The notes under the pieces were generated by a model. The model ran no database searches. It worked only from the letters and a program-made list of their open reading frames with translations, and was not told where the DNA came from. Positions 4,606-40,726 of a stretch of 40,726 bases of DNA are shown one piece after another; the stretch's first letter is position 1; each line of letters opens with the position of its first letter. The stretch lies in assembly GCA_015485895.1 (NCBI GenBank), contig WFSR01000062.1:1-40726 (forward strand), given 5' to 3'. A program made the translations under genes and the position numbers. The DNA comes from Candidatus Microgenomates bacterium. GTDB lineage: Bacteria; Patescibacteriota; Microgenomatia; UBA12405; UBA6130.

Positions 4606-4724
4606 ACCCCAGCTCCGCCGGATGGTGGACATCGGAGTTTTGAATTTGGGTCATTAGAATTTAGAAGTTTAATAGGATAATGGAACGATGATAAGCTATC
4701 ATAGCTGGATGCTTTCAATTGCGC

Positions 4725-9266: not shown

Positions 9267-9325
9267 TAAAAGAGAGAGAACAACTAGGGAATTGGAGCTA
9301 GGAATTAGAAACTTAGTAATGCGTT

Positions 9326-9363
9326 ATCCTGACTCCTTGACGTCACGTCGGGAAGTTCAGGAT
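9326..9363. repeat. copy of the nested hairpin module ATCCTGA..GACGTnACGTC..TTCAGGAT
   Basis: atcctgactccttgacgtcacgtcgggaagttcaggat. Related copies lie at 20588-20643, 22072-22113, 30638-30680 and 40690 to the window end. Confidence 0.8.
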
Positions 9364-9456
9364 CTCTGACAAACAGGCTGCCTAAAGACGAAAGCTCTGA
9401 TAAGAAAAAAGAAAAATTAGTATAATGAAGTAAATAGAACTAGAAACTAGGTTCGC

Positions 9457-9576
9457 CTCCGCCAGTTGGCGGAGTCGGAGGAGCTGATGCTGGCGACTCT
9501 AGTAACAATCTGCCATTCGCTGAAGACCCAACTCATGCACGCAAGGGTGAGGTATAAATTAGTCTTAGTTAGATAA
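9457..9576 (+). repeat. GC hairpin plus a conserved ~80-nt element and a 45-nt tail (candidate structured RNA/DNA element)
   Basis: 9472-9552 aligns with 16701-16783 at roughly 80% identity. 9532-9576 matches the reverse complement of 16617-16661 at 41 of 45 nt. Confidence 0.8.
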
Positions 9577-13961: not shown

Positions 13962-16539
13962 CAGAAGCAGTTGCTGTGGGTATTGGCGTAGGTATTGGCG
14001 AAGGGACAAAATTCCACGGTTTATTTACTCCAATATGAATTATCTTCTCCGCTTTTTGCTGTTTTTCATCTTCTGCCTCGGCTTTAAGCACATAAACACC
14101 ATCGCTCAAAGTAACCGGCTTTTCATAAGGTAAACCTACAAAATGGGCAATTTCCAGATTGTTAGCCAAAACCCTTACTTCTTTTATTTTCTCCAAGCTA
14201 TTGACCCGCAATTTAAGCAAGAAACTATTGCCCACTGTCTCTTCGTCTTTGGGACTCTGAAATTGGAGAGCCAATGGATTACCTTGACAATAGCTATGCG
14301 GGGGATGATAACGAGGATCCGATTGGGTTGCTAACCAGTTTAAAATACCTTCTTGCCAGCGATTTTTACCATCCTTAGAGACAGGATCTTCTTCTTTAAA
14401 AATAAAGAACTCTTTCTCGTCATAATCGCCCGCAGCAATTTGGCCCGGTGTGGCCAACTTATGCTCCTCCCGGCAAAGTTTTAACTTCACATGAATAGGG
14501 TCTTTACCCACTGGTTCGGTTCCTTTGATAAAGTACTCCTGACGCGAAGGGAAACCATCATGAGCCGGATAGCCAGAAACAATATCCACTCCCATTTGAT
14601 GGACATCATCAGGCTTCACAACAGGCTGGTAACCATATCTTTTTAGGGCTGCTAACATAACCCGCCGCCAAATTGGTGTTGCCCCAGAGATACCTGACGC
14701 TACCCTCTTCATCGGACTATTATCATTATTGCCAACCCATACTGCCACCAAAATATTGCCCGTCCAACCAATAGCCCAATTATCGCGCTTATCATTGGTT
14801 GTTCCAGTTTTTACTGCTACTTGCTTACCAGGGATACAAAGACCACTATGAGGACCAAAACTAATTAGTCGTGCCTTATCATCAGACAAAATATTGCTAA
14901 TGATAAAAGCCACTCCTGGTGAAAACACCGTTTTTCCTGATGTTGGTTGAAATTGGAAAAGAATCTTACCAGTTTGATCTTTTACCTGCAAAATCCCTAC
15001 AGGACTCTCCACTCGCCCTTGATTTGCGAAAGCAGTATAAGCACTGGCTAAATCAATCATCCTTATTTCACCGCCGCCTAGAGTTACCGCTAAGCCAAAC
15101 CGACGCAAGTTGTTGGGCGTGGGCGCTAAGGTATGGAGTCCCATTTGATCAGCCTTAGTCAACATGTTCTTCAAACCAACCATAGCTAACATTTTTACTG
15201 CTGGAACATTAATAGAATTACCTAAAGCATAACGTAATTGAAGAGGACCGTGATATTTGCCATCATAGTTAACAGGAACATAATCTGGCTGATTGGACGA
15301 CGAAGACGGAAAAACAGTTTTGACATCCATAAGCAGAGTAGCCGCTGTATACCCTTTTTCCAGAGCCAGGCCATAAGTCACCGGTTTTATAGCCGAGCCG
15401 GGTTGTCTCAATGCCTGAGTAACAACATTAAATTTCCCGTCAATATCTTTAGCAAAATAACTCTTAGACCCTACCATCGCCAGAACATCCCCCCGCCGAG
15501 GATTCAAGACCAAAACTCCGGCATTAGTAATGTGGAGATTTTTTACTTTCGCTAATTCTTCTTTCACGATTTTTTCTGCTTGTTCCTGCAAAGTTTCATC
15601 CAAGCTTGTTTCTACTTCTAGACCACCCTGCTCGACTAAAGATGCCCCATACAGTTGCTCTAATTGCTGCTTTATCCAAAAAACAAAATGGGGGGCTTTG
15701 ATAGAAACACTGGAAGGGGCAAAATGCATCTTTGGCAATTCTTCCCGGGCTGCTTTTTCAGTTTCCCTATCAATATACCCATCCTCCCGCATCCGCCGTA
15801 AAACCGCTTCTGTTCGCTTAATATAGGCTTGCGGATGCACACCATAAGGGGAGTAATATGATGGCCGCTGTGGTAAACCGGCCAGAAAAGCTGCCTCTGG
15901 CAAGTTCAGGTCACTAACTTTTTTATGGAAATATTCCTCAGCCGCCGCTCCCACTCCCCAAGCGTTTCCCCCATATGGAGCTTCGTTTAAATACATCAAA
16001 AGAATTTGATCCTTGGAATATTTTTTCTCTGTTTGAAGGGCCAAAATGAACTCTTTTAATTTTCTAGTTAAAGTACGCTGTGGGTTTAAAAGAACTACTT
16101 TTACTAGCTGCTGTGTCAATGTGGAGCCTCCCTCTAGGCGATGACGAAACGCAATATTATAAACAGCGCGAAGGATGCCTCGCCAGCTGAAACCGGGATG
16201 AGAATAAAAGTTTTTATCCTCGATGGAAATCGTCGCCCACTTTAAATAATCTGGCACCTCTTCCCAATTCACCGGTGTTCGTTTAGCCTGATGATAAACA
16301 TCAAAAAGTAATTGGTGGTTGCGATCATATATGCGAGTGGCAAAACCTTTGCGCCGCACCAAACGGTTTGGCGACGGCAAATCCCGAGCCGTCCAGGCAA
16401 AGGCTATCACCATACTAACAATTCCCACTAACAACAAAATAAAAGTAGCTAAAGAAAGGTAAAAAGCCCAGCGCCCCCAATTACCCCTTGACCGATATTG
16501 AGAAGGATATCGTCCACCACTCCGACGAAACAAAAACAT
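13945..16539 (-). CDS. class A penicillin-binding protein (glycosyltransferase + transpeptidase)
   Basis: N-terminal TM helix. GT51 motifs ISIEDKNFYSHPGF and GGSTLTQQLVK. Transpeptidase motifs SAIKP and KTGTT. A long C-terminal extension ends in a Pro/Thr-rich tail. The 3' end overlaps rplT by 17 nt. Confidence 0.9.
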   Translation of the reverse strand: MFLFRRSGGRYPSQYRSRGNWGRWAFYLSLATFILLLVGIVSMVIAFAWTARDLPSPNRLVRRKGFATRIYDRNHQLLFDVYHQAKRTPVNWEEVPDYLKWATISIEDKNFYSHPGFSWRGILRAVYNIAFRHRLEGGSTLTQQLVKVVLLNPQRTLTRKLKEFILALQTEKKYSKDQILLMYLNEAPYGGNAWGVGAAAEEYFHKKVSDLNLPEAAFLAGLPQRPSYYSPYGVHPQAYIKRTEAVLRRMREDGYIDRETEKAAREELPKMHFAPSSVSIKAPHFVFWIKQQLEQLYGASLVEQGGLEVETSLDETLQEQAEKIVKEELAKVKNLHITNAGVLVLNPRRGDVLAMVGSKSYFAKDIDGKFNVVTQALRQPGSAIKPVTYGLALEKGYTAATLLMDVKTVFPSSSSNQPDYVPVNYDGKYHGPLQLRYALGNSINVPAVKMLAMVGLKNMLTKADQMGLHTLAPTPNNLRRFGLAVTLGGGEIRMIDLASAYTAFANQGRVESPVGILQVKDQTGKILFQFQPTSGKTVFSPGVAFIISNILSDDKARLISFGPHSGLCIPGKQVAVKTGTTNDKRDNWAIGWTGNILVAVWVGNNDNSPMKRVASGISGATPIWRRVMLAALKRYGYQPVVKPDDVHQMGVDIVSGYPAHDGFPSRQEYFIKGTEPVGKDPIHVKLKLCREEHKLATPGQIAAGDYDEKEFFIFKEEDPVSKDGKNRWQEGILNWLATQSDPRYHPPHSYCQGNPLALQFQSPKDEETVGNSFLLKLRVNSLEKIKEVRVLANNLEIAHFVGLPYEKPVTLSDGVYVLKAEAEDEKQQKAEKIIHIGVNKPWNFVPSPIPTPIPTATASATSQP

Positions 16540-16616
16540 AAATTATTATAAACTAATAGACGTCGAAAGACTAGAATTAGTCTTACCTAATCAAAAAGCG
16601 GATTAAAAGAGAATCT

Positions 16617-16661
16617 TTATCTAACTAAGACTAATTTATATTTCGCCCATGCGTGCATGAG
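16617..16661 (-). repeat. inverted 45-nt copy of the tail of the 9457-9576 element
   Basis: The reverse complement ctcatgcacgcatgggcgaaatataaattagtcttagttagataa matches 9532-9576 at 41 of 45 nt. Confidence 0.85.
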
Positions 16662-16700
16662 CAGAATGACAAATACATGGCGCATCCACAATAGAAAGAA

Positions 16701-16783
16701 GAGTCAGATGAGCTGACGCTGGTGACTCTAGCAACAATCTGCCATTCACCGAAGACTCAGTTCTTGCCTGCAAGGGCGGATGG
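16701..16783 (+). repeat. direct copy of the conserved ~80-nt element
   Basis: gagtcagatgagctgacgctggtgactctagcaacaatctgccattcaccgaagac... aligns with 9472-9552. The stem gagtca/tgactc replaces gagtcg/cgactc, one compensatory pair. Confidence 0.8.
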
Positions 16784-16825
16784 CAAAGAAACATATACCT
16801 GAGACCCTAAATAAGGCTTGTTATT

Positions 16826-16864
16826 AATTTCAGTCCGATTTTTCAATTAAGTGGGACTGAAATT
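16826..16864. other. strong 11-bp hairpin upstream of thyX
   Basis: aatttcagtcc - 17-nt loop - ggactgaaatt. No T-run follows. Function unknown. Confidence 0.6.
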
Positions 16865-16979
16865 GCGTTATAACAGCTACGAATTTGCATAACAAACTTT
16901 TCTAGGTCACTAAAAATAACTGAAAGATCACTCTGGCGAGCTCCTTGCAACCAGGGCAGCAATAAGTTATTTTAAGATA

Positions 16980-18590
16980 ATGGAAAATTGGTCGCCAAAA
17001 GAAAAAAAGATTTTGCAAAAATACTTTACAAACACGCAGGCAAATGTTTTTGGTCTGGTTAACCTTCCCGAGGTAATTAAAGGAACTCTCTTTTCTCGTT
17101 ACTCCCGATCGGGTAAAAATTTGCGTCGCTTATTTTTAGACGAATTCTGGCAGCAAGACCAACTACGGCAAATACTTCCCCAAAGGAACAATTATGAAAA
17201 TCTCAACATCAGTCGGGCCGAAAACTTCTACGAACGGGTTCTAATTGGTTACGGTGATGATTCAGTTGCCGAATTGGGTGGAGCCCATATAGCCCTAGAA
17301 AATATTAGTGTTTTAGCTACCAAATCTTTCGAGGAGCATCGCCTTGGCCTTTCGTTTTTAGAGAAATCAACCCGCTATGTTTATTTCGACCAACGGGATA
17401 AAAATGGCCACTATCGTTATTATCGGCCGCCGAAAATCATTAGGTCGCCCTTTGCTCACCTTTATCAGCAAACCGCTGATAATCTTTTTGACACTTATAG
17501 CCATTTAGTCCATGAGCTTCAACCAGCTCTTCGACGTCTTTTTCCTGGCGACGAGAATGATCCTGCTTATCGTTTTTCCATTAGAGCTAAAGCCTGTGAT
17601 TTAGCGCGCCCCCTTTTGCCTCTAGCTACTCTCACCAATATGGGCATTTACGGGAATGGTCGTGCTTTTGAATATCTCATCACCACTCTTTTAGCCTCAC
17701 CGCTTGGCGAAGTTCGTTTATTTACTCAAGCAATAAATAAAGAATTACGGAAAATTATCCCCGCTTTTGTCAAACGGGCTACAAATGAAAAAGGCCAACA
17801 ATATCGCCAATATTTGCAAAAACGGCAACAACGACTGACGCGCTGGCAGCACCAATGGCAAACCAAATCACCTACAGGCAAGGTAGCTGTTCAGTTGGTC
17901 AATTTTGACCATCAAGCCGAGGAAAAAGTGCTTCGGGCTATAGCTTATCCCTGGTCTAATCTTCCAATGCATCAGCTTAAAAGGAAAATTAGCCAAATGA
18001 AGCCAGCTGATCGTCAACGTCTTTTCCACGATTATCTGGCCGACCGCCAAAATCGCTTCCATAAGCCAGGCCGAGCCCTTGAAGAAGCTTATTTCGCTTT
18101 CGAAATCAGCGCTGACTGGGGGGTATATAAAGATCTAATGCGCCACCGAATCCTTAGCCGCTATCACCAAATTTTCAGTAACCAATATGGCTATCGCATC
18201 CCTCCTTATCTCCGCCCAGCTGGTTTACTTGCTCCTTACCGTCGAGCAATGGATCAGGCCCAAGAAGTTCAGGTTAAAATTGCTAAAGAAATGCCTGTAG
18301 TCAGCCAATATCTCGTTACTCACGGTGCTATAAATCATTTCTATATCCGCCTCAATCTCCGCGAGGCGGTGCACTTAGTGGAGCTTCGCAGTCAACGCCA
18401 GGGGCATCCTTGGTATCGTCAGGTTGCCCAAGAAATTGGCCGGCAAATTACCGCTAAATTGCCTCTTTTGGGAAAATATATTTTCCCTTTCTTGGATAAC
18501 CATGATTATAATTTGGAACGATTGGCCGCTTTCCGCAAAGTAATGAAAAAAGCAAGAAATAAAAATATTGTTCCCTTTCCAGAAAATTAA
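16980..18590 (+). CDS. thyX: FAD-dependent thymidylate synthase, long form
   Basis: ThyX motif RHRILS within DLMRHRILSRYHQ. 536 aa, about twice the minimal ThyX size, with a degenerate motif-like segment (LFSRYSRS) in the N-terminal half. Confidence 0.78.
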   Translation: MENWSPKEKKILQKYFTNTQANVFGLVNLPEVIKGTLFSRYSRSGKNLRRLFLDEFWQQDQLRQILPQRNNYENLNISRAENFYERVLIGYGDDSVAELGGAHIALENISVLATKSFEEHRLGLSFLEKSTRYVYFDQRDKNGHYRYYRPPKIIRSPFAHLYQQTADNLFDTYSHLVHELQPALRRLFPGDENDPAYRFSIRAKACDLARPLLPLATLTNMGIYGNGRAFEYLITTLLASPLGEVRLFTQAINKELRKIIPAFVKRATNEKGQQYRQYLQKRQQRLTRWQHQWQTKSPTGKVAVQLVNFDHQAEEKVLRAIAYPWSNLPMHQLKRKISQMKPADRQRLFHDYLADRQNRFHKPGRALEEAYFAFEISADWGVYKDLMRHRILSRYHQIFSNQYGYRIPPYLRPAGLLAPYRRAMDQAQEVQVKIAKEMPVVSQYLVTHGAINHFYIRLNLREAVHLVELRSQRQGHPWYRQVAQEIGRQITAKLPLLGKYIFPFLDNHDYNLERLAAFRKVMKKARNKNIVPFPEN

Positions 18591-18609
18591 AAACGAAGTA
18601 AAATAAAGG

Positions 18610-20391
18610 ATGAAATTTACGAAATTTAATTTCATCCCCTGGCTAATTATTTTTTTGGGATCTTTTAACCTCTGGACAACTTTTTTTCCCACCCAACATT
18701 CCCCCTTAAGTCACTTTTTCGACATCCTTTGGCCATTTTCTAGCACCAATAGTCGGGCTTTCCTAGCTATCGCCGGGCTTTCACTTTTTTACCTAGGTAT
18801 TGGTTTAGTGCAACGCCGTAAGACGGCCTGGCTTTTGGTAGAGATTTTCCTCACCGCCAGTGCCGTGATCCAATTTCGGCATTATAACTCTCTTGAGGGA
18901 GCACTTGCTAACCTATCATTGGCCATTTTTCTCTTTTTCCAGCGCCAGCAATTCTATGGATCTATCCTTTCTCTCAGTTGGTGGCGAGCACTTACTTTTC
19001 TAACCGCGATTAGTTTCCTTCTTTTTCTATATCTGAGCCTCATTTTTTGGCTAGCTAGTCACTATTTTACCACCCCTTATTCTTGGCTTACAATTACTAA
19101 AATTGTTATCGCTTCTTTTTGGCACCTCCATTGGCAAGGACCTAACTTAGGTATTCCACGCCTGAACTGGTTCTTTGCCACTCTTCCCTGTCTTTTGGGT
19201 GTTTTTACACTTTATAGCTTGACTCTTCTTTTCCATATCTCTAGTCAGCAGCAACAACGACAATATTTAGCTTGGGATAAAGCACGAAAAAAACTCTATC
19301 GCTACGGCCACACCAGCGCTGATTTTTTCAAGCTTTGGCCAGCTAATCTTCGGTTCTTCTTTTGGAAACATTCTTTCATCGCCTATTGGATAAAGGGCAG
19401 CAACTACCTAGTGGTCGGCAACCCGGTGGGGCCTAAAACGGAGAGGTTAAAAATCACCCAAGCATTTCTCCATTTTAGCGGCCGACAAAACGCCAACCCT
19501 CTTTTTGTAGGTATTGATGAAGAGAGCCAACGCCTCCTAGAAAAAATCAATCTTAGCAGTATTTATATTAGTGACGAAGCATTTATTGACCTCCGGCGCC
19601 ATCCCGATGACATTAAAGACCTTCGTAATGTAAAAACTAAGCTCGAGAAACGATGGGGATACCACTTTACTATCTGGCGACCACCGTTAACAACAAAACA
19701 GCTAAAACAACTACGCAAGGTTTCGCAATCATGGCTTAGAAGCTTAAACCGTAGGGACGGAGAAGCCATATTCGGATCCGGCTGGCTAACAAATATGGTT
19801 CGCGCCAGTTGGGTACCGGTAGTCTTGAATCCTAGCAATCAATCGGTGGCGTTTCTCACCCTCTACCGTTCATTCCGGCACAAAACTATGGTGGTAGACC
19901 TAATGCGTTATCGCTATCCAGCAAAAAATGGCATTATGGAATACCTCGTCAGTAAAACTTGGGAACAGCTAGGTAACCAAGGTTGGCAATGGCTCGATTT
20001 AGGAGCGGCACCCCGCCAAGGCGCTCGGCTAAAAAAGCCGCCACTTGCTCTCCCTATCCCTAAGGAAGTGCCTAATTTCCAAGCTTGGCGGGAGGCAATT
20101 AAACATCTTCCACGGACAACTCTAGCATTGCCCCAAGCAATCCGCTACCAAGGAGCCAACTTTCTTTACTTCAGTTTCCTGGGAGTTTTGGCTACCAGCT
20201 ATCGTGGCTTGCGGCATTTTAAAGACAAATTCCAACCCCGTTGGGAACCACGTTACCTTGCCTATCTCGATCTCCCAAGTCTCCTTTACACCCTTTGGAT
20301 TTGGCGCTGGCAAAAACCAAAGCCCTTAGGACGGGAGATTACCAACCCAAAATACTATCGAATTCTTCTCCGCCACAATCTAACCAGCTAG
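18610..20391 (+). CDS. MprF-like aminoacyl-phosphatidylglycerol synthase (TM domain + LPG-synthase C-terminal/DUF2156-like domain)
   Basis: About 6-7 N-terminal TM helices, then YGHTSADFFKLWP...IAYWIKGSNYLVVGNPVGP and VVDLMRYRYPAKNGIMEYLV...WLDLGAAP, which are typical of the MprF C-domain. Confidence 0.62.
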   Translation: MKFTKFNFIPWLIIFLGSFNLWTTFFPTQHSPLSHFFDILWPFSSTNSRAFLAIAGLSLFYLGIGLVQRRKTAWLLVEIFLTASAVIQFRHYNSLEGALANLSLAIFLFFQRQQFYGSILSLSWWRALTFLTAISFLLFLYLSLIFWLASHYFTTPYSWLTITKIVIASFWHLHWQGPNLGIPRLNWFFATLPCLLGVFTLYSLTLLFHISSQQQQRQYLAWDKARKKLYRYGHTSADFFKLWPANLRFFFWKHSFIAYWIKGSNYLVVGNPVGPKTERLKITQAFLHFSGRQNANPLFVGIDEESQRLLEKINLSSIYISDEAFIDLRRHPDDIKDLRNVKTKLEKRWGYHFTIWRPPLTTKQLKQLRKVSQSWLRSLNRRDGEAIFGSGWLTNMVRASWVPVVLNPSNQSVAFLTLYRSFRHKTMVVDLMRYRYPAKNGIMEYLVSKTWEQLGNQGWQWLDLGAAPRQGARLKKPPLALPIPKEVPNFQAWREAIKHLPRTTLALPQAIRYQGANFLYFSFLGVLATSYRGLRHFKDKFQPRWEPRYLAYLDLPSLLYTLWIWRWQKPKPLGREITNPKYYRILLRHNLTS

Positions 20392-20395
20392 TTCG

Positions 20396-20497
20396 TAACT
20401 GTTAAGCCTCAAATAAATGTTTCACTTTTAACCTAGCGAGACGCAGGAACTCTAAAAGCTAAGAAACGCTAAATAAAGAGAAGGAAGACTAGAATTT
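20396..20497 (+). repeat. ~100-nt repeat module shared with 21942-22040
   Basis: taactgttaagcctcaaataaatgtttcacttttaacctagcgagac... versus taagtgttaagtctcaaatgaacgtttacacttttagcctagcgaaac..., roughly 80% identity by eye. Confidence 0.8.
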
Positions 20498-20503
20498 GCC
20501 TTT

Positions 20504-20650
20504 CCCCGTCATCCCGCCCTTTCTTATGAAAGAGCGGGGTCTTCAGTGAGTGTCTAATTGACATTGATGGTTCACTACCCACTGAAGATCCTGAAACCCC
20601 AGGCCCCGACGTGACGTCGGGACGGAGCGGGTAAATTCAGGATGACGGGG
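20504..20650. repeat. 147-bp element with perfect 11-bp terminal inverted repeats (CCCCGTCATCC / GGATGACGGGG) enclosing three consecutive hairpins
   Basis: hp1 at 20513-20538 (cccgc-c-ctttc ttat gaaag-a-gcggg). hp2 at 20541-20587 (cttcagtg...cactgaag). hp3 at 20588-20643 (atcctgaa...ccccgacgtgacgtcggg...ttcaggat). Confidence 0.85.
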
Positions 20651-20743
20651 TGTTGATAACTATTGACAGAGGGTGTGAATGTTTATCTGATACTCAACAC
20701 CTAGCAATTGTTTTTAACAACACAAAAATTCTCGCCAATTTCG

Positions 20744-20752
20744 TGCTATTAT
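20744..20752 (+). promoter_or_regulatory. extended -10 box (TGcTATTAT) 10-13 nt upstream of the CBS gene start
   Basis: tgcTATTAT, then aaagaaaagg, then GTG ATG. Confidence 0.4.
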
Positions 20753-20762
20753 AAAGAAAAGG

Positions 20763-21833
20763 GTGATGGAAAAAGTAAAGCAAGTGCTACGGCATCGTGG
20801 TTACAAAAAAATCACCATTACTGCTAATGCTAGCCAGGCTCTTGCCCACCTACAAAGTTCGCATGATGCCCTCTTCGTTTTTCAAAAGAAAAAGTTTTTA
20901 GGAGTGGTAAATCTTTATTACTCTTTTCTTCGCCATCACCCTCAACCTCAAGAGAAAATTGAGCGCCTGCTTTACCATCCACCTTGTTTGGCGCCCCATA
21001 ATTCACTCATTAGGGCAGCTAAATTAATGGCCGAGGCCCGGCTCTATTGGTTACCGGTTGTTGAAAATGGAAAATTCTTAGGAGTAATCAGTGCCACTGA
21101 TATTCTCCGTCGACTAGCATACTCCGCCGCCGCCAGTCGGCCCCTGGCAGCAATAAAACTCTCGCCAGCTATCTATTTAGATGAAAAAGCCACCCTAGCT
21201 CAAGCCCGACAGCTAATGCTTAAACATAGAGCTAGCCGCCTTATTGTTCTCCAACATAGAAAACCAGTCGGCATCCTCAGTAGCTACGACCTCCGCCAAA
21301 AGCAATTAACACCAAGTTGGTCACGGCTCCGTTTAGGCAATCACATCAATAAAGAAAATATGCCAGTTAAGCTGTTTTACCACCACGGGCTAGTTACTAC
21401 TAACGACCAAACTACCATCCGGCAGGCTTTGCGTCAATTATTAGCTAGTAAAACGAAAAGTTTAGTTATTCTTCAAGGGGAAAATATTATAGGCTTAGTA
21501 AGTTACCGTAATTTACTCAAATATTTTACCCAACCCAATTTTTACCCCTTTTGGAATATTAGTTTTCGCCTGAGGCTTCCCTTAGAGGAAAAGATTTTCC
21601 TAGGCAATTATTTTCAACGCCTTTTTCAACGAAAGCCTATCCTTAGGGAAAAAATCCAGCGTCTAGATTTAATCTTCAGCCGCCAAACACAACGCCCTAA
21701 CACCAAAACATATCAAGTAACTACCCGCGTTTGGGCTACTGGGCAAAGAGCGTTTACTCTGGTTATCAAGGGAGGACATTTTCGCCACCTCCTCAGCAAA
21801 GTCAGCCGACAAATAAGAAGACAGCTGAAATAG
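20763..21833 (+). CDS. four-CBS-domain protein with an HPF/RaiA-like C-terminal domain (tentative)
   Basis: Four CBS-like repeats ending GVVNLYYSFL, GVISATDILRRL, GILSSYDLRQ and GLVSYRNLLKYF. The last ~95 aa follow a beta-alpha-beta-beta-beta-alpha pattern like the ribosome hibernation factor. The start may be the ATG at 20766. Confidence 0.7.
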   Translation: MMEKVKQVLRHRGYKKITITANASQALAHLQSSHDALFVFQKKKFLGVVNLYYSFLRHHPQPQEKIERLLYHPPCLAPHNSLIRAAKLMAEARLYWLPVVENGKFLGVISATDILRRLAYSAAASRPLAAIKLSPAIYLDEKATLAQARQLMLKHRASRLIVLQHRKPVGILSSYDLRQKQLTPSWSRLRLGNHINKENMPVKLFYHHGLVTTNDQTTIRQALRQLLASKTKSLVILQGENIIGLVSYRNLLKYFTQPNFYPFWNISFRLRLPLEEKIFLGNYFQRLFQRKPILREKIQRLDLIFSRQTQRPNTKTYQVTTRVWATGQRAFTLVIKGGHFRHLLSKVSRQIRRQLK

Positions 21834-21941
21834 CCAAAATAAGCACCCTCGCCTAATTCGGGGCTAGCTCTCCACCACATTGGCAACACCCAAAATTATT
21901 ATGGGGCTAAGTCCACCAGCTGATGGATTGGAACTAGAGAT

Positions 21942-22040
21942 TAAGTGTTAAGTCTCAAATGAACGTTTACACTTTTAGCCTAGCGAAACATAAAAACTTT
22001 AAAGGTTAAGAAACACTAAATAAGAGAAAAACTTAGGATT
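21942..22040 (+). repeat. second copy of the ~100-nt module (see 20396-20497)
   Basis: Direct alignment by eye, same orientation. Confidence 0.8.
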
Positions 22041-22065
22041 CAAGCCCGTTCTGTTTGTCCTTTCT

Positions 22066-22160
22066 CTTGTCATTCTAAAAACCTCCGACGTTACGTCGGA
22101 GGGGGTTCAGAATCTTCAGCTGGGTGTCCGATTTACATTATTAGCAGTCAACTCTCTGGG
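22066..22160. repeat. reverse-oriented, partly degenerate copy of the three-hairpin element
   Basis: cttgtcattctaaaaacctccgacgttacgtcggagggggttcagaatcttcagctggg... matches the reverse complement of 20588-20650. hp3 is preserved (attctaaa / ttcagaat around cctccgacg tta cgtcggagg). Confidence 0.7.
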
Positions 22161-22221
22161 GATCCTTAAGCCGATTTTTGATTGGGTAAGACTCGGGATT
22201 TTATTTTGCCGCTCATTTGTG

Positions 22222-26040: not shown

Positions 26041-26060
26041 CATACCAAAAAATACCCAAA

Positions 26061-26205
26061 TTCCAAATCTCAAACTCCAAACAAAACTCAAAGTCCAAAA
26101 TCCTAAATTCTAAACAATGACCAAAATCCAAATGACCAAATACTTAAACAGGATGGTTTTTAGGCTTCTGTGTTTTGGTCATTTGGTATTTGGTATTTAA
26201 TATTG
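26061..26205. repeat. AT-rich strand-skewed quasi-palindrome (same family as 4338-4605)
   Basis: ccaaatctcaaactccaaacaaaactcaaagtccaaaatcctaaattctaaacaatgaccaaaatccaaatgacc..., then ttttggtcatttggtatttggtattt. Confidence 0.8.
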
Positions 26206-26223
26206 CCTGCCTGCGCAGGCAGG
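26206..26223. repeat. perfect 18-bp GC palindrome CCTGCCTGCGCAGGCAGG
   Basis: Self-complementary. It shares the GCCTGCC/GGCAGGC arms with the 40263-40291 hairpin. Confidence 0.9.
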
Positions 26224-26240
26224 GAACTTTGTGCTTCTTT

Positions 26241-26336
26241 AACTTAGTTCCTCCAACCTAGCTCCATTTTTAACTTTTCACTTTCTTCGCCCTTAGTCCT
26301 TAGCCCTTAGCCCCTTTCAACCTAGTTCCTAGTTCC
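26241..26336 (+). repeat. 7-bp tandem repeat arrays (CTTAGYC x3, CTAGTTC x2) and related C/T-rich filler
   Basis: cttagtc cttagcc cttagcc (26292-26312). cctagttcctagttcc (26321-26336). Confidence 0.85.
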
Positions 26337-26411
26337 ATTTATTAACTTTCTAGCTCTTAAGTCATAATCAGCCATAAGAAGATAAAATTTGCATTCTTTA
26401 GAGAAAATAAG

Positions 26412-30471: not shown

Positions 30472-30637
30472 AAGAGAGGGGCAAGAAAAATCAATTTAGG
30501 CTTAACTTTTCACTACATTGGCAATTAAAAACCCAAAGCCTGGCCCCTAAAGCTAGGAAATAGCTGAAAGGGGCTAAAAAACTAAGGGCGAAAAGATGAC
30601 CTGCCATCCATATCTTTGTCAAGTTGAGTTTGGCTCA

Positions 30638-30680
30638 CCCTGCCCCGATCTTACGTCGGAGTGAAAATCAGGATGACGCG
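30638..30680. repeat. degenerate copy of the GACGTnACGTC / TCAGGATGACG module
   Basis: ccctgccccgatcttacgtcggagtgaaaatcaggatgacgcg. Confidence 0.6.
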
Positions 30681-30687
30681 TTATTGG

Positions 30688-30823
30688 CCTAATTCCTAGT
30701 TCCATTTACTTCTCACATTAATTCTTCTTTCCTAATAAAAGCTTTAGGCTTTGGGCTTTCAGCTTTTAGCAGCCCTTTAGGACTTTTGCTTTTTCCTAGT
30801 TCCTAGTTCCTAGTTCCTAGCTC
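30688..30823 (+). repeat. ~135-bp heptamer-rich module shared with 40469-40607
   Basis: cctagttccatttact..., aaagctttaggctttgggctttcagcttttagcagccctttagg, then CTAGTTC x3 plus CTAGCTC (30796-30823). Confidence 0.85.
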
Positions 30824-30901
30824 CATTTCCACTTCAACTTCTCTAAGTATCAGATACTAAAGATTTTGAATTTGGAAAATTGGCAAATTCGGACTTATTA
30901 T

Positions 30902-31820: not shown

Positions 31821-32302
31821 GAATTAAGGCTTATCGTGCCATTACGGTACATACTAATTTGCCGGCAACGGCTGATTGTCCTTATTTGGAAAAAGGCAGG
31901 GTTGCTGCTCACTCCACTCAAAGCACCGCTCAATGGCAGCCAATTGAAATGATTATTATCATCACCATCAACTAAGTTAATTGCCACCTTTTTCTTTTGC
32001 CAATCACCATTGTAAGTTTGCCATGGTTGTTGCCAGTTGTCGCACACTTGGCGGGCTCTAAGGCTGTAATCAGCTGGCGACCACCAAACTTCGTACCGTA
32101 GCAGAGTTTGGCAATTTTGGCGGTCTTTCACTCCATTACGAGCTTGGCTTCGGAGAAGGGCTAATTGTGAATAGAGACTATTAGCAGCTAAATTAACCGC
32201 CCGTTGTTGATAAAATAGACGATAACCGGCAAAACTTATTCCCGCCACCAAGCTCATAATTGCTGCCGAGACCAAAAGTTCAATTAACGTCAAGCCTTTC
32301 AT
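31811..32302 (-). CDS. prepilin-type minor pilin
   Basis: MKG|LTLIELLVSAAIMSLVAG. An internal start is chosen because the longer ORF overlaps the upstream pilin gene. Confidence 0.65.
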   Translation of the reverse strand: MKGLTLIELLVSAAIMSLVAGISFAGYRLFYQQRAVNLAANSLYSQLALLRSQARNGVKDRQNCQTLLRYEVWWSPADYSLRARQVCDNWQQPWQTYNGDWQKKKVAINLVDGDDNNHFNWLPLSGALSGVSSNPAFFQIRTISRCRQISMYRNGTISLNSCQ

Positions 32303-32303
32303 T

Positions 32304-32735
32304 TTACGGCGGTGAGAGGTGGTAATTGCAAATTGCCCCTCCGCAACTAGGGTGACCGGGACAGCCGTTACGGTCATTGCTAGATTCCAGTGCAGCACAA
32401 AGAGTATAGTCAGTTCCATTACTGGAATGATAATAATAATGCCATCCTTTAGGATCTTGGGGAAATTCATGCATATAAGTAGTCCCGTTGCACACCCACG
32501 CCCCAGATGAAGGCGGTAAGCACGCCTGGCAACTACCACCATCGTAATAAGGATAACAGCCAATATCATTGCGGATCATTTCCAAAACTGAACGGATTTG
32601 ACTGAGATCAGCTTCTCGCTTGTCATCTCTAGCTTTTTTCCCGGCTGCCTGATATGACACCATCGCCGCCGATGAAAGGAGAATTATGATGGTAGTTACT
32701 ACCAAGAGTTCGATAAAAGTAAACCCTTTCTTCAC
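32304..32735 (-). CDS. GspG/PilA-like prepilin paralogue
   Basis: MKKG|FTFIELLVVTTIIILL, then KKARDDKREADLSQIRSVLEMI. Cys-rich C-terminus. Confidence 0.75.
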   Translation of the reverse strand: MKKGFTFIELLVVTTIIILLSSAAMVSYQAAGKKARDDKREADLSQIRSVLEMIRNDIGCYPYYDGGSCQACLPPSSGAWVCNGTTYMHEFPQDPKGWHYYYHSSNGTDYTLCAALESSNDRNGCPGHPSCGGAICNYHLSPP

Positions 32736-33136
32736 TGAAGGTTACTCAAACAAAAGTAATCACCGCTACCATAATGGCAACCGGCAGCCGTCCCTGTATC
32801 CTGGGCATTCCCCCCGCCAGTTTCTAAATGGCCACAGATACAATAACTATTGTCAGCGCATTGCCAAGAATAACTTTGGCCCGGCTTAGGGTCGCTTGGT
32901 AATCCGCCCGGCAAATAAGTATCACCAGGATTGCAACCGGCAGGGTATTTGTTATTAACCGCCCGATATTGTTCAATGGCTTTTTGGACTGCCTTAATAT
33001 CCTGCCGCCGGGTAGCGTCACGGGCCCGTTTTTGGGCCGAAGCATAAGAAGTAGAAACCACCGCTACCAAGGCAGCAATAATCGAAATTACCACCAATAA
33101 CTCAAAAAGGGTAAAGCCAAAATTTTTCCTTTTCAT
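32732..33136 (-). CDS. GspG/PilA-like prepilin paralogue
   Basis: MKRKNFG|FTLFELLVVISIIAALV, then QKRARDATRRQDIKAVQKAIEQY. An internal start is chosen. Confidence 0.75.
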   Translation of the reverse strand: MKRKNFGFTLFELLVVISIIAALVAVVSTSYASAQKRARDATRRQDIKAVQKAIEQYRAVNNKYPAGCNPGDTYLPGGLPSDPKPGQSYSWQCADNSYCICGHLETGGGNAQDTGTAAGCHYGSGDYFCLSNLQ

Positions 33137-33137
33137 T

Positions 33138-33581
33138 TTATTCACTACATACATAATAACAATTTTGCGAGCAATTTGCATGGCAAATATCATCTGGGCA
33201 ACGCTGGCTAGAATTGTTAATATCAATATCACCGCCATTCTCCAACTCTGCCCAAAGCCGAAAACCATCCCTGTCACTACTAACGCAATAGCCATAATGA
33301 TGGTCGCCACCCAAGGGGTCGTCGGGGACGTGCACCATATAGGTTGTCTTCCCTTCTTGCCAACGATTACCGAAAGGGGGAGCTCCAGTCGGATAAGCCT
33401 GGTGATCGTTATAATAAAGGCGTAGGCTATTTTTAACCTGCCAGAGATCTTGCTTCCGCTGGCCATCTCGGGCCCGTTGGCGAGCCGACATCAAATTTGG
33501 CAAAAGCAACCCTGTTAAGATAGCAATAATTGAAAGAACTACCAAAAGCTCAATAAGAGTAAAACCTGATTTTTCTTTCAT
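33138..33581 (-). CDS. GspG/PilA-like prepilin paralogue
   Basis: MKEKSG|FTLIELLVVLSIIAILTG, then RQRARDGQRKQDLWQVKNSLRLYYNDH. Confidence 0.75.
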   Translation of the reverse strand: MKEKSGFTLIELLVVLSIIAILTGLLLPNLMSARQRARDGQRKQDLWQVKNSLRLYYNDHQAYPTGAPPFGNRWQEGKTTYMVHVPDDPLGGDHHYGYCVSSDRDGFRLWAELENGGDIDINNSSQRCPDDICHANCSQNCYYVCSE

Positions 33582-34084
33582 TGGATGCGGACATTGGAAC
33601 TAGCAACACCAAAATTAAACACCTTGTCGTGACAGCGATAGCCTGCAGTATTGAATTTATTATAGTCGGGATCACGGGTATTTTCCAAGACAGAAAACAA
33701 TTTGAAGTAAGTCCCATCAGATTGATAGCAATAATCTAAACCGTGGCTAGGATCTTGGGGCAAGCGCTTCATATAAACTATAGTAGTATTATTAATTGTT
33801 TCCTTGAAAGCATCGCCCCAATTTAAAACAGATAGCTGAGGACAATGACGACTAACGATAATCTTGCCCGTTTCCTGACCGGCACAATCAACACTCAGGG
33901 GATAAGAACGGTGATCGTTATAATACATCTCTAGAGCACGGGCAATGTTGCTGAGATCCGCTTTCCGTTGAGCATCACGGGCCTTTTGCTGACTGGTATG
34001 ATACTGGCCAAATCCCACACCGGCTAAAATGGCTAAAATTGCCATTACTACCAACAATTCTACCAAAGTGAATCCTTGTCTCAT
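33578..34084 (-). CDS. GspG/PilA-like prepilin paralogue
   Basis: MRQG|FTLVELLVVMAILAILAG, then QKARDAQRKADLSNIARALEMYYNDH. An internal start is chosen. Confidence 0.75.
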   Translation of the reverse strand: MRQGFTLVELLVVMAILAILAGVGFGQYHTSQQKARDAQRKADLSNIARALEMYYNDHRSYPLSVDCAGQETGKIIVSRHCPQLSVLNWGDAFKETINNTTIVYMKRLPQDPSHGLDYCYQSDGTYFKLFSVLENTRDPDYNKFNTAGYRCHDKVFNFGVASSNVRIQ

Positions 34085-34085
34085 T

Positions 34086-34796
34086 TTATTGACCGCAACT
34101 AACATCATAGCAACATTCTGTTCCCTCACTATTACATCTATACTCTACACCAGGACAACAAGTGGAGCAAGTATTAGGAAGGCAATAACGGCTCCCTTCT
34201 TCACCACATGTTGCCGGATAACAACCCGACGGGGAAGTGGGAGCTGGCGTCGGTGTCGGCGTTAATTCTACCAAAGGCGAGGTTGGCGACGGAGTTACGC
34301 TAGGCGCCGGCGAACCGATTGCACTACCCACCTGTTCGGGGGGAGTAATATTAGGGCTTGCCACCCCCAATGTATACCGCCGACCATCAATCTGACAACC
34401 TTGGTGGCAATAATCTCCTTTTCGGGGATAAAACAAATTCGTATAGATAGAGAACCAACTAGGACAGCTATCGTCTTCTACAATAATTTTATATGGTTGA
34501 TGACTTCGAGGATCACAGGGCACAGAATTCAGCCAGGGGCGAAAATCGTGGCTATCGCAATGCTGTAATTTGAGCAAATCTTCACCCTGAGGATAACAGC
34601 CATTGTCATTATAATAATCCTCCATCGCCCTTTGGAGCTCATATAAATCACGACGCCGACGGCCATCGTTAGCCTTGCGAATTTGAGCCAGATAATTCAT
34701 CAAAAAAGTTGTTGCCAGCACTACCACGATAGTCATTACAATCACCAACTCCACTAAAGTCAAGCCCGCTGATTTCTTTGTAGCAAATGTTCCCAT
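34086..34796 (-). CDS. prepilin with a Pro/Thr-rich linker and a C-terminal Cys-rich knob
   Basis: KKSAG|LTLVELVIVMTIVVVLA, then IRKANDGRRRRDLYELQRAMEDYYNDN. A linker SPAPSVTPSPTSPLVELTPTPTPAPTSPSG. 10 Cys in the last ~45 aa. The ATG overlaps the pilD stop (TGATG); an alternative ATG is at 34802. Confidence 0.7.
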   Translation of the reverse strand: MGTFATKKSAGLTLVELVIVMTIVVVLATTFLMNYLAQIRKANDGRRRRDLYELQRAMEDYYNDNGCYPQGEDLLKLQHCDSHDFRPWLNSVPCDPRSHQPYKIIVEDDSCPSWFSIYTNLFYPRKGDYCHQGCQIDGRRYTLGVASPNITPPEQVGSAIGSPAPSVTPSPTSPLVELTPTPTPAPTSPSGCYPATCGEEGSRYCLPNTCSTCCPGVEYRCNSEGTECCYDVSCGQ

Positions 34797-35533
34797 CACC
34801 ATGGCAGTCTCGCTAAGATATAATCGCCCCACCACCAACTAACTAAAGCTGCCCCTACTAAAAAAGGACCAAAGGCAAGCCGACTTTTCCAACGAGCCCG
34901 ATGCCGCCAGAGTAAAAACCCAGCCACCAAACCACCGGCGAGAAAAGCCAAATAAAGGAGCAACAACATTTTTGCTAAACCTAGCCAAAGGCCCAAAACA
35001 AAAATTAATTTTGCATCTCCAAGCCCCATACCTTTCCCTTTGGTAACAATATAAAGGAAAAGAAAGAAAAAAAGACCTATAAAAGCCGCCGGGAAATACA
35101 AGTGGGGGAGAAGAAGAATAAAAAATAGGAAAGGTAGTAAAAATACATCGGGAATAATTTGATAATGACGGTCGAAAAAAAATATTGCCAGGAGAAACCA
35201 AGTTAAAAGCAAATATATTCCCAACCATAGCCAGGCTAAGTTTTGTTGTTGCCACCAAAAAAAAGTGACTAGAAACGACAAACCACTCAACAGCTCTAAC
35301 CAGAAATATTCCGGCCTTATTTTAGCCTTGCATGTTCGGCAACGGCCCCTTAAAAACAAGAAAGAGAGCACAGGAATATTTTCCCACCAAGCCAACTGCC
35401 GGCCACAATTATCGCAATACGAACGTCCCCATAAATCAAGCCCGCCCTTTCGGGGATAACGGCTAATCAAAACGCCCAAAAAACTTCCCCCGCTTGCTCC
35501 GAGAGCAAACAGGAGAAGCTCTATCGCTAACAT
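34796..35533 (-). CDS. pilD: prepilin peptidase (A24 family)
   Basis: Cys box CDNCGRQLAWWENIP...RGRCRTCKAKI. Catalytic Asp contexts IIPDV and GLGDAKL. Polytopic membrane protein. Confidence 0.9.
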   Translation of the reverse strand: MLAIELLLFALGASGGSFLGVLISRYPRKGGLDLWGRSYCDNCGRQLAWWENIPVLSFLFLRGRCRTCKAKIRPEYFWLELLSGLSFLVTFFWWQQQNLAWLWLGIYLLLTWFLLAIFFFDRHYQIIPDVFLLPFLFFILLLPHLYFPAAFIGLFFFLFLYIVTKGKGMGLGDAKLIFVLGLWLGLAKMLLLLYLAFLAGGLVAGFLLWRHRARWKSRLAFGPFLVGAALVSWWWGDYILARLPW

Positions 35534-35536
35534 CTT

Positions 35537-36193
35537 TTATTGCGGCACACACTTAAAATAAGAATCTGTCCTATCTGTCCACTTAGCGCTGTCAAGATCG
35601 CTTTGACTTGTCACCGCTACTGCCTGGGTAGGAACACCATCGGCAGTTTTAATCCCCAGATCTTTCAAATTCGAACTCAGTTTTCTGTTAGCTTTAGCTT
35701 TAGGGATAAAACAAACATAAACTGCTCCTCCATTTCCCGCTTCTTTGAAAAGATAAAGCCTATTTAAATCGCTTTTAATGTTATCAGCGAAGGGGTCCTT
35801 TTGGGCAAATGAGGCTTTCAATTCGTCGGTTTTGATAAGCTCGCCATAATTACCATCGGCATCCTTACAGCTAGTCACTTCTTTATTGTAATCACTCCCG
35901 CTACAAACACCAAATCCTGGCATCTTGCTCGTCAGACCTAAGGTTTGCGATTCATCAGCTCCCTTGCCATCACCCCAAACCTCATCATCCCAGGGATAAT
36001 ATTCTTGGGAAGCATAATAGCGTTCCAGAGCACTTAGCGCTTCAGCAGCATCGTTCTGGAATTTAGCATCCCGAGCTTTGTTTGTTTGCTCAATCGGGTT
36101 CAGGGTTGAGAGAACTGCCACCGACAAGATGGAAATTAAGGAAATAACAATGAGCAGTTCTACTAAAGTAAAGCCTTGTTTTAATTGCTTCAT
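35537..36193 (-). CDS. type IV pilin (candidate major pilin)
   Basis: MKQLKQG|FTLVELLIVISLISILSV. Two Cys pairs in the globular domain. It is the first pilin after pilC. Confidence 0.75.
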   Translation of the reverse strand: MKQLKQGFTLVELLIVISLISILSVAVLSTLNPIEQTNKARDAKFQNDAAEALSALERYYASQEYYPWDDEVWGDGKGADESQTLGLTSKMPGFGVCSGSDYNKEVTSCKDADGNYGELIKTDELKASFAQKDPFADNIKSDLNRLYLFKEAGNGGAVYVCFIPKAKANRKLSSNLKDLGIKTADGVPTQAVAVTSQSDLDSAKWTDRTDSYFKCVPQ

Positions 36194-40231: not shown

Positions 40232-40262
40232 AACAAAATAAATCATAAATCACAAGCAGCCT

Positions 40263-40291
40263 GCCTGCCCCGACGTGACGTCGGGGCAGGC
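40263..40291. repeat. perfect 13-bp-stem GC hairpin/palindrome GCCTGCCCCGACG-tga-CGTCGGGGCAGGC
   Basis: Read directly. It has the same core (CCCCGACGTGACGTCGGG) as 20604-20621. Confidence 0.9.
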
Positions 40292-40465
40292 AATACCAAA
40301 ATTCTAAATTCTAAACTCTAATCCGCCAGCTGGCGGACTAAACAAATTCAAATGACCAAAATTCAAATGTTCAAAACATCCTTGTCATCTTTTTTGTTTT
40401 GGTCATTTAGTCATTTGAATTTTGGGTTTGTTTAGGATTTGGGTCATTAGGATTTAGAGTTTGTT
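40292..40465. repeat. AT-rich strand-skewed quasi-palindrome, near-identical copy of 4413-4575
   Basis: 40319-40379 matches 4413-4473 at 60 of 61 nt. The right arm ttttggtcatttagtcatttgaatttt...ggatttgggtcattaggattt matches 4505-4570 with scattered changes. Confidence 0.9.
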
Positions 40466-40468
40466 TGA

Positions 40469-40607
40469 CTTAGTTCCTAGTTCCTAGTTCCATTTACTCA
40501 AACTTCCTCTTTCTCATATTAAAGCTTTAGGCTTTCAGCTTTTAGCAGCCCTTTAGGGCTTTTGCTTTTTCCTAGTTCCTAGTTCCTCCAACCTAGTTCC
40601 TAGTTCT
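40469..40607 (+). repeat. heptamer-rich module shared with 30688-30823 and 26241-26336
   Basis: cttagttc ctagttc ctagttc, then catttact..., then aaagctttaggctttcagcttttagcagccctttagg, then cctagttcctagttcctccaacctagttcctagttc. Confidence 0.85.
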
Positions 40608-40613
40608 ATCTAT

Positions 40614-40726
40614 CTCGTCATGCTGAATTTAGTTCAGCATCTTCAGCTGGATGGGCAACCACCATTATTGATACAACATCCAGCTGGAGATCCTGAACCC
40701 CCCGACGTTCCGCCAACTGGCGGAGT
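40614..40726. repeat. second copy of the three-hairpin element, truncated by the window end
   Basis: ctcgtcat. hp1 at 40620-40640 (atgctgaa tttag ttcagcat). hp2 at 40641-40689 (cttcagctggatg...catccagctggag). Then atcctgaaccccccgacgt... The order and spacing match 20504-20650, but the hairpin sequences differ. Confidence 0.75.

Follow-up and report, generated by a model that had tools for sequence, protein, structure and literature searches.

What kind of element occupies positions 20504 to 20650 of contig WFSR01000062.1, a 40,726-nucleotide stretch of bacterial DNA analysed here over its full length (the window), and why did its copies appear, in a first-pass annotation, to share an architecture and not a sequence? 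The segment, hereafter element A, is very probably a head-to-head dimer (tags outside) of CGTC-tagged repetitive extragenic palindromes (REPs), subtype CGTC-2. The CGTC superfamily was described by Di Nocera, De Gregorio and Rocco (2013, BMC Genomics 14:522; PMC3733652). In that paper's description, a unit consists of a terminal unpaired tetranucleotide CGTC, often TGTC or CCTC, a stem of 8-9 bp (9 in families 3 and 4) that almost invariably starts with complementary A-T residues, a loop of 4-5 nt, and a 3-nt tail with the consensus CCA; enlarged loops are mentioned for some families only (Di Nocera et al., 2013). Head-to-head dimers predominate; their spacers, 20-100 bp long, are conserved and in some cases carry complementary ends or small stem-loops, and the units lie downstream of open reading frames (ORFs), between co-directional or convergent genes. 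The same text names Proteobacteria, Chlorobi, Bacteroidetes, Spirochaetes and Thermotogae as hosts, and lists Neisseria dRS3 and Rickettsia palindromic elements RPE-4 and RPE-6 among the sister families of CGTC-2 (Di Nocera et al., 2013).

Both the sequence and the folds of element A agree with the earlier description of perfect 11-bp inverted repeats, CCCCGTCATCC (20504-20514) and GGATGACGGGG (20640-20650), enclosing three hairpins. From left to right the element reads CCCCGTCATCC / CGCCCTTTC-TTAT-GAAAGAGCGGGG / TCTTCAG...CTGAAGA / TCCTGAA...CCCGACGTGACGTCGGG...TTCAGGA / TGACGGGG, its end sequence being noted as CGTCATSCTGAA, and its 147 nt form a closing stem and three hairpins (hp1, hp2 and hp3). 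The opposed arrangement of two REP units, tags outermost, accounts for the apparent 11-bp terminal inverted repeat (TIR) and for hp1 and hp3, the outer hairpins; the tails of the two units are joined via a ~43-nt spacer with complementary ends, which forms hp2. In copy B, at the right end of the window, hp1 is TGCTGAA-TTTAG-TTCAGCA with TCTTCAG after it; read on the minus strand this is CTGAAGA-TGCTGAA-loop-TTCAGCA-TGACG, which mirrors the right arm, CTGAAGA-TCCTGAA-...-TTCAGGA-TGACG. Two inverted copies of a single hairpin unit therefore surround a central hairpin. CGTC tags stand at 20507-20510, 20644-20647 (as the reverse complement) and 40616-40619, and a TGTC tag at 22068-22071. Every copy has a (C/T)GTC tag, and a GTAG tag is absent from the REP end.

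Because the window is full of palindromes, it contains 27 perfect 11-nt inverted repeats within 150 nt, against ~3 expected under a first-order Markov model of its own sequence. The significance of the element thus comes from the recurrence of its motifs, not from the 11-nt inverted repeat alone. With at most one mismatch, TCAGGATGAC occurs 7 times in the window (1.5 expected), CCGACGTNACGTCGG occurs 5 times (0.04 expected), and TCCGCCANCTGGCGGA gives 9 strand matches (0.03 expected).

Related copies lie at 40614-40726 (copy B), 22068-22169 (copy C), 9322-9366 and 30637-30678. Copy B has the order and spacing of element A, as had been claimed, and is cut by the window end. The copy first reported at 22066-22160 as reverse-oriented is real, a degenerate dimer, and has the same orientation as A; it looked reversed because its palindrome-bearing unit is on the left. 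The partial copies placed at 9326-9363 and 30638-30680 are present and are solo right-type units. Stems in the window are ATGCTGAA, ATCCTGAA and ATTCTAAA, and the tails are all CTT or CTC. Most units have loops of 20-40 nt filled with a nested palindrome, the shorter loops being one of 5 nt at 40616-40643 and one of 4 nt in the left unit of A. In copies A, B and C and in both solo units, a unit loop holds the palindrome CCGACGT-N-ACGTCGG, inside which copy B carries a second palindrome; this double nesting of its right unit is also seen in locus L081 (loci outside the window are designated by L numbers). A 16-nt perfect palindrome, TCCGCCAGCTGGCGGA, is found at 4416-4431, 9458-9473, 40322-40337 and 40709-40724 (9 strand matches against 0.03 expected), either free-standing or nested in the other palindrome within REP loops, in the window as in L081.

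The two units of element A differ from each other. The 13-bp stem of the left unit, which starts A-T and then T-G, includes one G-T pair and one mismatch, and covariance model R1 matches the unit at 20507-20543 with an E-value of 0.37. The unit forming hp1 belongs to a variant REP subfamily. In the right unit, the loop is enlarged to 40 nt; empty versions of this unit, with the loop ACGAG, are present in L041 and L106. The coordinates of all these features are collected in Table 1.

Table 1. REP units, spacers and nested palindromes of the window, with the evidence or sequence that defines each.
Feature	Coordinates	Strand	Evidence or sequence
Element A, heterodimer of two CGTC-type REP units with hairpin spacer, head to head (probable)	20504..20650	+	folds; alignment with six other copies
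Left REP unit of A (hp1)	20507..20543	+	CGTC tag, 13-bp stem ATCCCGCCCTTTC/GAAAGAGCGGGGT, loop TTAT, tail CTT
Spacer hairpin of A (hp2)	20540..20588	+	complementary ends TCTTCAG/CTGAAGA; homologous between copies, not covarying
Right REP unit of A (hp3)	20585..20647	-	tail AAG, stem ATCCTGAA (20588-20595)/TTCAGGAT (20636-20643), tag GACG (20644-20647)
Nested palindrome in loop of A right unit	20605..20621		CCCGACGT-G-ACGTCGGG; 5 in window, 0.04 expected
Left unit of copy B, canonical CGTC-2-type	40616..40643	+	CGTC-ATGCTGAA-TTTAG-TTCAGCAT-CTT; R1 41 bits, E 6e-9
Spacer hairpin of copy B	40640..40690	+	TCTTCAGCTGGATG ... CATCCAGCTGGAGA
Right unit of copy B, cut at window end	40687..40726	-	loop holds CCCCGACGT interrupted by palindrome TCCGCCAACTGGCGGA (40709-40724)
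Left unit of degenerate copy C	22068..22116	+	TGTC-ATTCTAAA-(CCGACGTTACGTCGG nested at 22085-22099)-TTCAGAAT-CTT
Degenerate spacer and right-unit remnant of copy C	22113..22169	+	CTGGGGATCCTTAA at 22156-22169
Solo REP unit with nested palindrome	9322..9366	+	CGTT-ATCCTGA..(GACGTCACGTC)..TTCAGGAT-CTC
Solo REP unit with nested palindrome	30637..30678	-	ACCCTG..(CCGATCTTACGTCGG)..ATCAGGAT-GACG
Free-standing nested palindrome within a 15-bp-arm palindrome	40262..40292		TGCCTGCCCCGACGT-G-ACGTCGGGGCAGGCA

The same units were recovered from other genomes, metagenomes and viral contigs. A scan of genome-collection contigs with TCTTCAG-N-CTGRAGATYCTGAA gave mostly chance matches and a conserved Rhizobium gene, with at least three useful loci among the matches listed. 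Three contigs of the Ca. Shapirobacteria metagenome-assembled genome (MAG) JALTFB01 (L041, L081 and L106) carry six full dimer copies, with the consensus tGTCATGCTGAA-attttt-TTCAGCAT-CTTCAG(~35 nt)CTGAAG-ATCCTGAA-acgag-TTCAGGAT-GACgggg. In these six, as in copies A, B and C, the tags are outside and a ~43-nt spacer has complementary ends. Several JALTFB01 copies have the right loop ACGAG replaced by CTTTTCGACtttGTCGAAAAA, by CTTTCCCCGACtatccGTCGGGAAAAA, or by CTTTCCCCGACtatccGTCGGGAAAAA interrupted by TCCGCCCACTGGCGGA, and one has a palindrome in the left loop. A metagenome scan in which the right unit alone was constrained returned 22 loci, and a viral-contig scan 53. There, the ~28-nt unit is found singly and as tight 56-nt dimers, for example GTCATGCTGAACTCGTTTCAGCATCTTCTGAAGATCCTGAATCAAGTTCAGGATGAC in L118, with further tight dimers in L119, L126, L127 and L131; the contigs bearing units or tight dimers range from 28 to 71% GC. 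The unconstrained partner units keep perfect stems with other sequences, including ATGCTGAA, ATTCCGAA, ACCCTGAA, ATGCCGAA, ATTCCGGA and ATTCTGAC.

A census of 92 distinct perfect units, drawn from the window, the Shapirobacteria MAG and the 22 metagenome and 53 viral loci, gave the tags TGTC (42), CGTC (35), AGTC (12) and GGTC (3). Tails are 3 nt long and always start with C (CTC 26, CTT 22, CTA 15, CCA 14), and the 5-nt loops are mostly CTTGT, CTCGT, CTTGA or TTTAT. All eight stem pairs are kept, the first being A-U in 84/84 units and the second U-A in 79/84. When hairpins were counted by a TGAC anchor and a stem of 8 with at most one mismatch, 217 were found in 714 kb of loci of interest, compared with 33 in 844 kb of unrelated control loci. 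Several of the control hairpins are a rhizobial relative with a 9-bp stem, ATCCTCGGG-tcaag-CCCGAGGAT-GAC, which may be likened to mosaic elements. Enterobacterial bacterial interspersed mosaic elements (BIMEs) and Rhizobium-specific intergenic mosaic elements (RIMEs) are assembled between genes in modular fashion, from palindromic units and further short motifs; their unit sequences and spacers differ from those found here, and nested palindromes and heptamer arrays fall outside those descriptions.

An 8-bp stem with a 5-nt loop leads to family CGTC-2. The resemblance to CGTC-2 REPs extends to the unpaired (C/T)GTC tag, the stem starting AT, the head-to-head dimers, the conserved or structured spacers, the position downstream of ORFs and the lack of a linked transposase and, less clearly, to the 3-nt tail and the occasional enlarged loops. 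The unit sequence itself is common to Sulfurovum, Sphingobium/Novosphingobium and Treponema. BLAST against plasmids recovered it from Treponema saccharophilum, Sphingobium/Novosphingobium and Sulfurovum, and a 57-nt dimer query was 100% identical over 26 nt to a 4Fe-4S protein gene of Sulfurovum mangrovi. The 2013 supplement lists a CGTC-2 repeat within the ferredoxin-like gene SUN_0512 of Sulfurovum, where it encodes RHSELVSGS (Di Nocera et al., 2013); by our back-translation, this peptide can be encoded by CGTCATTCTGAACTTGTTTCAGGATC. Searching the literature for the sequence strings themselves returned chance primer matches only.

Several points weigh against this identification. The CGTC-2 assignment rests on rules given in the text of PMC3733652 and on one peptide, not on the consensus in its Figure 2. 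Tails are mostly CTN and not the published CCA, which is found mainly in high-GC contigs. Both units of element A are non-canonical (a 13-bp stem with a 4-nt loop, and a 40-nt loop), and only one uninterrupted canonical unit scores strongly with model R1 in the window. Mobility is deduced from presence and absence between diverged genomes, and no precise empty site was found for A. Compared with known CGTC-2 REPs, the present copies also stand apart in their patescibacterial host, in the nested palindromes that fill most window loops and in the 13-bp-stem partner.

The impression of a conserved architecture without a conserved sequence has three sources: a second REP subfamily serving as the left unit, small unrelated palindromes nested in unit loops, which make hp3 differ, and a spacer that is homologous but diverged. 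That hp1 differs between copies was correctly reported, since element A has a unit of another REP subfamily there; the hp2 loops, by contrast, are not unrelated but diverged homologues. A direct comparison of the hp2 interiors of A and B is weak (19/37 identical, z 1.8), but through an intermediate the relationship becomes clear, with 25/35 identical positions between A and L081 (z 6.1) and 24/37 between B and L081 (z 4.9).

Comparison with relatives suggests how such dimers come and go. Two further assemblies of the same population, L001 and L193, are 99.8% identical; L193 spans element A, carries it, and aligns without gaps and with no single-nucleotide polymorphism in it. L206, the closest other relative, lacks the whole block 16473-22199, in which both elements, A and C, lie together with the genes for ThyX, an LPG_synthase_C-like protein and a CBS protein. 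Because this 5.7-kb block is missing, L206 offers no precise empty site for A; L193, which carries A, gives none either. The order in L206 is a penicillin-binding protein (PBP) gene, ~280 nt of heptamer-type repeats, tRNA-Tyr, L33, VTT and RecG, and the block has the look of an insertion specific to the window's lineage, with repeat-rich DNA at its borders. L206 has a dimer of its own at 19639-19780, which the orthologous window region lacks; its left unit (19639-19675) is the 13-bp-stem unit of A (R1 E-value 0.002; 93% over 41 nt). Across 21.7 kb, the more distant L208 contains no unit; L206 has one dimer and the window at least three. The repeats thus turn over quickly between related genomes.

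Among the metagenome and viral loci, changes within units are also visible. L138 differs from L130 by a clean 47-nt insertion in a unit loop, and L147 and L165 differ likewise; L124 and L129 have a unit nested in a unit, L125 and L138 have nested hairpins, and L128 has one unit deleted relative to L132 and L134. An automated presence/absence search of related phage loci gave no clean whole-unit case, its yield being loop insertions and one deletion between direct repeats.

Element A is, as other REP dimers are, non-coding and probably non-autonomous repeat DNA; its spread and turnover may pass through a hairpin-forming single-stranded form, with a putative enzyme supplied in trans. It is also conceivable, if doubtful, that the unit loops and the tail-to-tail centre of the dimers act as landing sites for mini-palindromes ('Russian-doll' hairpins), so that units and their passengers would spread by targeting hairpin apices without any element-encoded transposase, phages serving as cross-phylum vehicles. 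Candidate agents for such apex-targeted spread would be a host single-stranded-DNA enzyme or template switching; phages do have co-oriented units between their genes.

A more conventional agent would be a REP-associated tyrosine transposase (RAYT) or other Y1 (HUH) transposase moving a REPIN-like element, with the CGTC tag and hairpin as the site of recognition and cleavage, comparable to GTAG plus hairpin in the case of RAYTs. REPINs, which are doublets of GTAG REPs (Nunvar et al., 2010; Bertels and Rainey, 2011), have an analogous anatomy: an unpaired tetranucleotide is followed by a hairpin, and two inverted hairpin repeats flank a spacer. The recurrence of hairpin loops as insertion sites suggests single-stranded DNA chemistry, and locus L133 carries a Y1_Tnp gene (Pfam E-value 3e-13) with a canonical unit 13 nt upstream of its ATG. 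The L133 enzyme was considered as the cognate transposase and rejected: its homologues (the second gene of L195, and L198-L202) are bounded by different ends, GGGGTCAGGTC...GACCTGACCCC, and lack a CGTC unit, which marks the association in L133 as fortuitous and lineage-specific. The family of L133 and L195-L202 comprises ~283-aa Y1 (IS200-like) transposases, labelled 'RayT' by some sources, with at least 8,000 scored homologues; its genes are bracketed by the inverted repeats GGGGTCAGGTC...GACCTGACCCC, the right one overlapping the stop codon. No Y1_Tnp domain was found at E-values up to 1e-5 among 98 ORFs of ten unit-rich phage loci (23 families listed), where the ORFs encode ordinary structural and replication proteins, and a phmmer search with E. 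coli RayT, run on the ORFs of all six frames from the window and about 80 loci, matched L133 only. The absence of a dedicated transposase agrees with the 2013 account, which reports none flanked by or associated with CGTC units (Di Nocera et al., 2013). With a CGTC instead of a GTAG tag and, in the window and these loci, no unit-flanked RAYT gene found, a RAYT-type origin is unlikely. The ends of IS200/IS605 elements and of palindrome-associated transposable elements (PATEs) are likewise hairpins recognised as single-stranded DNA, but those of IS200/IS605 are unlike left and right subterminal hairpins with no TIR, whereas element A is symmetric and has no TnpA or TnpB nearby. The first-pass suggestion of a hairpin-recognised DNA element came close, in that REPs are a class of hairpin repeats; no target-site duplication can be seen by eye at any copy, and no cognate transposase was found.

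Could the copies instead be retained for the benefit of the host, as a hairpin between cistrons or at 3' ends that makes the upstream mRNA more stable or dampens read-through, or as a binding site for a host DNA protein, as has been proposed for E. coli REPs? By a crude ORF proxy, units are placed between co-directional genes in 71 cases, convergent in 32, divergent in 14 and 'intragenic' in 43, so that co-directional and convergent settings outnumber divergent ones, and many units lie a few nucleotides past a stop codon. Singletons in phage gene arrays are strand-biased: in contigs from IMG/VR, all units are on one strand in L158 (7/7), L155 (5/5), L173 (4/4), L171 (3/3) and L157 (3/3). Placement is an argument shared by the 2013 paper (Di Nocera et al., 2013). 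These five phage contigs have 3-7 canonical CGTC-2 units each, many of them ~10-40 nt upstream of a ribosome-binding site and ATG, with related hairpins alongside (GATTTCTC...GAAATGAC and GATTGC...GCAATGAC). On the other side, the lack of a T-run after the hairpins means that they are not intrinsic terminators; copy number differs sharply among the close relatives L208, L206 and the window; many copies are degenerate; and the same sequence occurs in unrelated hosts. Selection by the host is an improbable explanation. Because element A sits inside a same-strand gene array, co-transcription is probable, and its very stable RNA structure might buffer 3'-end decay or read-through; such buffering would be a side effect, not the work of a dedicated RNA gene.

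That the element is the gene of a structured non-coding RNA, or a cis-regulatory RNA, in the form of a ~150-nt cloverleaf kept for its fold, is far less credible. The fold is indeed very stable: as RNA, the minimum free energy of element A is -75.7 kcal/mol on the plus strand (z -7.35). The minus strand, however, folds even better (-80.6 kcal/mol, z -8.45), and as DNA the value is -41.7 kcal/mol (z -7.43); none of 200 shuffles folded as well. Folding equally well on both strands, as DNA palindromes do, counts against an RNA. The claim that pairing had been kept while the sequence changed, and hence that a functional RNA was likely, fails for the element as a whole, given that the framework sequence is conserved in six full copies, A among them. 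In the alignment of these six, whose consensus structure has the three hairpins, the covariation term is only -0.39 of -29.6 kcal/mol; the base of hp2 is invariant and its inner helix is broken by mismatches and G-U pairs. Four pairs change on both sides: three are in hp1, each from copy A alone, and the sole one in hp2 (columns 62-78) is in the inner helix and in 2/6 copies. Across genomes, compensatory changes affect 5/8 pairs of the 8-bp REP stem (47 cells), a count that is partly circular because units were pre-selected for a perfect stem, and that shows which positions vary. Real compensatory change thus appears confined to the REP stem in units selected for pairing, and it is an already-known property of REP families. 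The one-strand arrangement of phage units just upstream of ribosome-binding sites would also suit an RNA, but copies are truncated, nested or solo, and element A bears no promoter-like or terminator-like site, the counts of such sites in the scanned region being at shuffle level. Rfam identified two tRNAs in the window and nothing in ten loci at gathering thresholds, and nothing relevant at E-values up to 10. A hammerhead-like ribozyme, suggested by the likeness of CTGAAGA to CUGANGA and by three helices, was set aside, as no GAAA follows helix II by eye and Rfam gives no match.

A classical MITE (a miniature transposable element with inverted repeats), derived by deletion from an insertion sequence (IS) that has TIRs at its boundaries and whose 11-15-bp ends a DDE transposase would recognise, is very improbable: the present element's terminal inverted repeats, ~110-150 bp length, stable structure, multiple intergenic copies and lack of coding capacity recall bacterial MITEs (Neisseria Correia/NEMIS, cyanobacterial Nezha), but the features that define MITEs, namely an IS origin, IS-type TIRs and target-site duplications, are not seen here, the last by eye in the flanks of seven full copies. 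The 'TIRs' are also found by themselves, as 28-nt units that are self-complementary, and in tight dimers of 56 nt, in contigs whose GC content spans 28-71%, and no transposase is among the 25 of 84 Pfam families listed for the window and the Shapirobacteria loci, as the first-pass annotation had held for the window.

Element A is intergenic, between plus-strand ORFs at 18610-20391 and 20763-21833, which are an LPG_synthase_C-like gene and a CBS-domain gene. The host is a member of the Patescibacteria, Microgenomates-like, to judge from its encoded proteins: the threonyl-tRNA synthetase (ThrRS) of the window shows 55-59% identity with proteins labelled Patescibacteria, Woesebacteria, Microgenomates and Pacebacteria and 84% identity with one NCBI MAG, and DUF5660, type IV pilus and ComEC-type genes fit this placement. 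The genomes of Patescibacteria are usually considered small and streamlined. Heptamer-like tandem repeats (CCTAGTT, TTGGTCA/TGACCAA, GGATTT/AAATCC) crowd the intergenic regions 4340-4680, 26056-26360, 30680-30830 and 40300-40615, where they form large imperfect palindromes around tRNA and gene ends. They resemble cyanobacterial short tandemly repeated repetitive (STRR) sequences, yet this is a patescibacterial genome; an assignment to cyanobacterial STRR, short dispersed repeat (SDR) or Nezha elements was rejected because gene content and ThrRS homologues point to Patescibacteria.

Other repeats accompany the dimers. The 56 nt outside the right end of A (20651-20706) contain a hairpin, GGTGTTGA...TCAACACC, and are 80% identical to L081 168-223; as this stretch also abuts a REP unit in the Shapirobacteria MAG, the repeated module may reach past 20650. 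An 88-nt module at 20396-20482 and 21942-22028 (82% identical) is in each case followed by a REP dimer and starts 5 nt (first copy) or ~110 nt (second) downstream of the stop codon of the neighbouring gene; no further copies were found in the window or related loci. A repeat family with the core GAGCTGATGCTGGCGACTCTAG...CTGAAGA is present at 9472-9576 and 16617-16776 of the window, at L041 7326-7400 and at L081 85-125; the two window copies share 83% over 76 nt, with a 45-nt inverted partner at 91%, and in L041 the core is the spacer of a REP dimer. Finally, a 33-nt motif is repeated six times at 32266-36177, at intervals of ~400-500 nt except for the last, which is 2,100 nt, within a run of minus-strand ORFs. 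The N-terminal methylation motif was found in some ORFs of the scanned set (window and Shapirobacteria loci); if the ORFs at 32266-36177 are among those, they would be tandem paralogous pilin-like genes beside type IV pilus ATPase and platform genes.

The class to which element A is assigned has been known since 2013, and what is new is its extension to Patescibacteria and to phage contigs, where its copies are strand-biased, together with the pattern of insertion at hairpin apices; an open literature search found no report of a REP, MITE or REPIN in Patescibacteria or the candidate phyla radiation. As a single locus, this ordinary repeat DNA matters little. Recognising a REP dimer, however, prevents its mis-annotation as an RNA gene, a MITE or spurious small ORFs. 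The loop-insertion polymorphisms, the strand-biased phage copies and the dimer present or absent at the same site provide material on how transposase-less CGTC REPs propagate; apex-targeted spread, if true, would address the question of 2013 as to what moves them.

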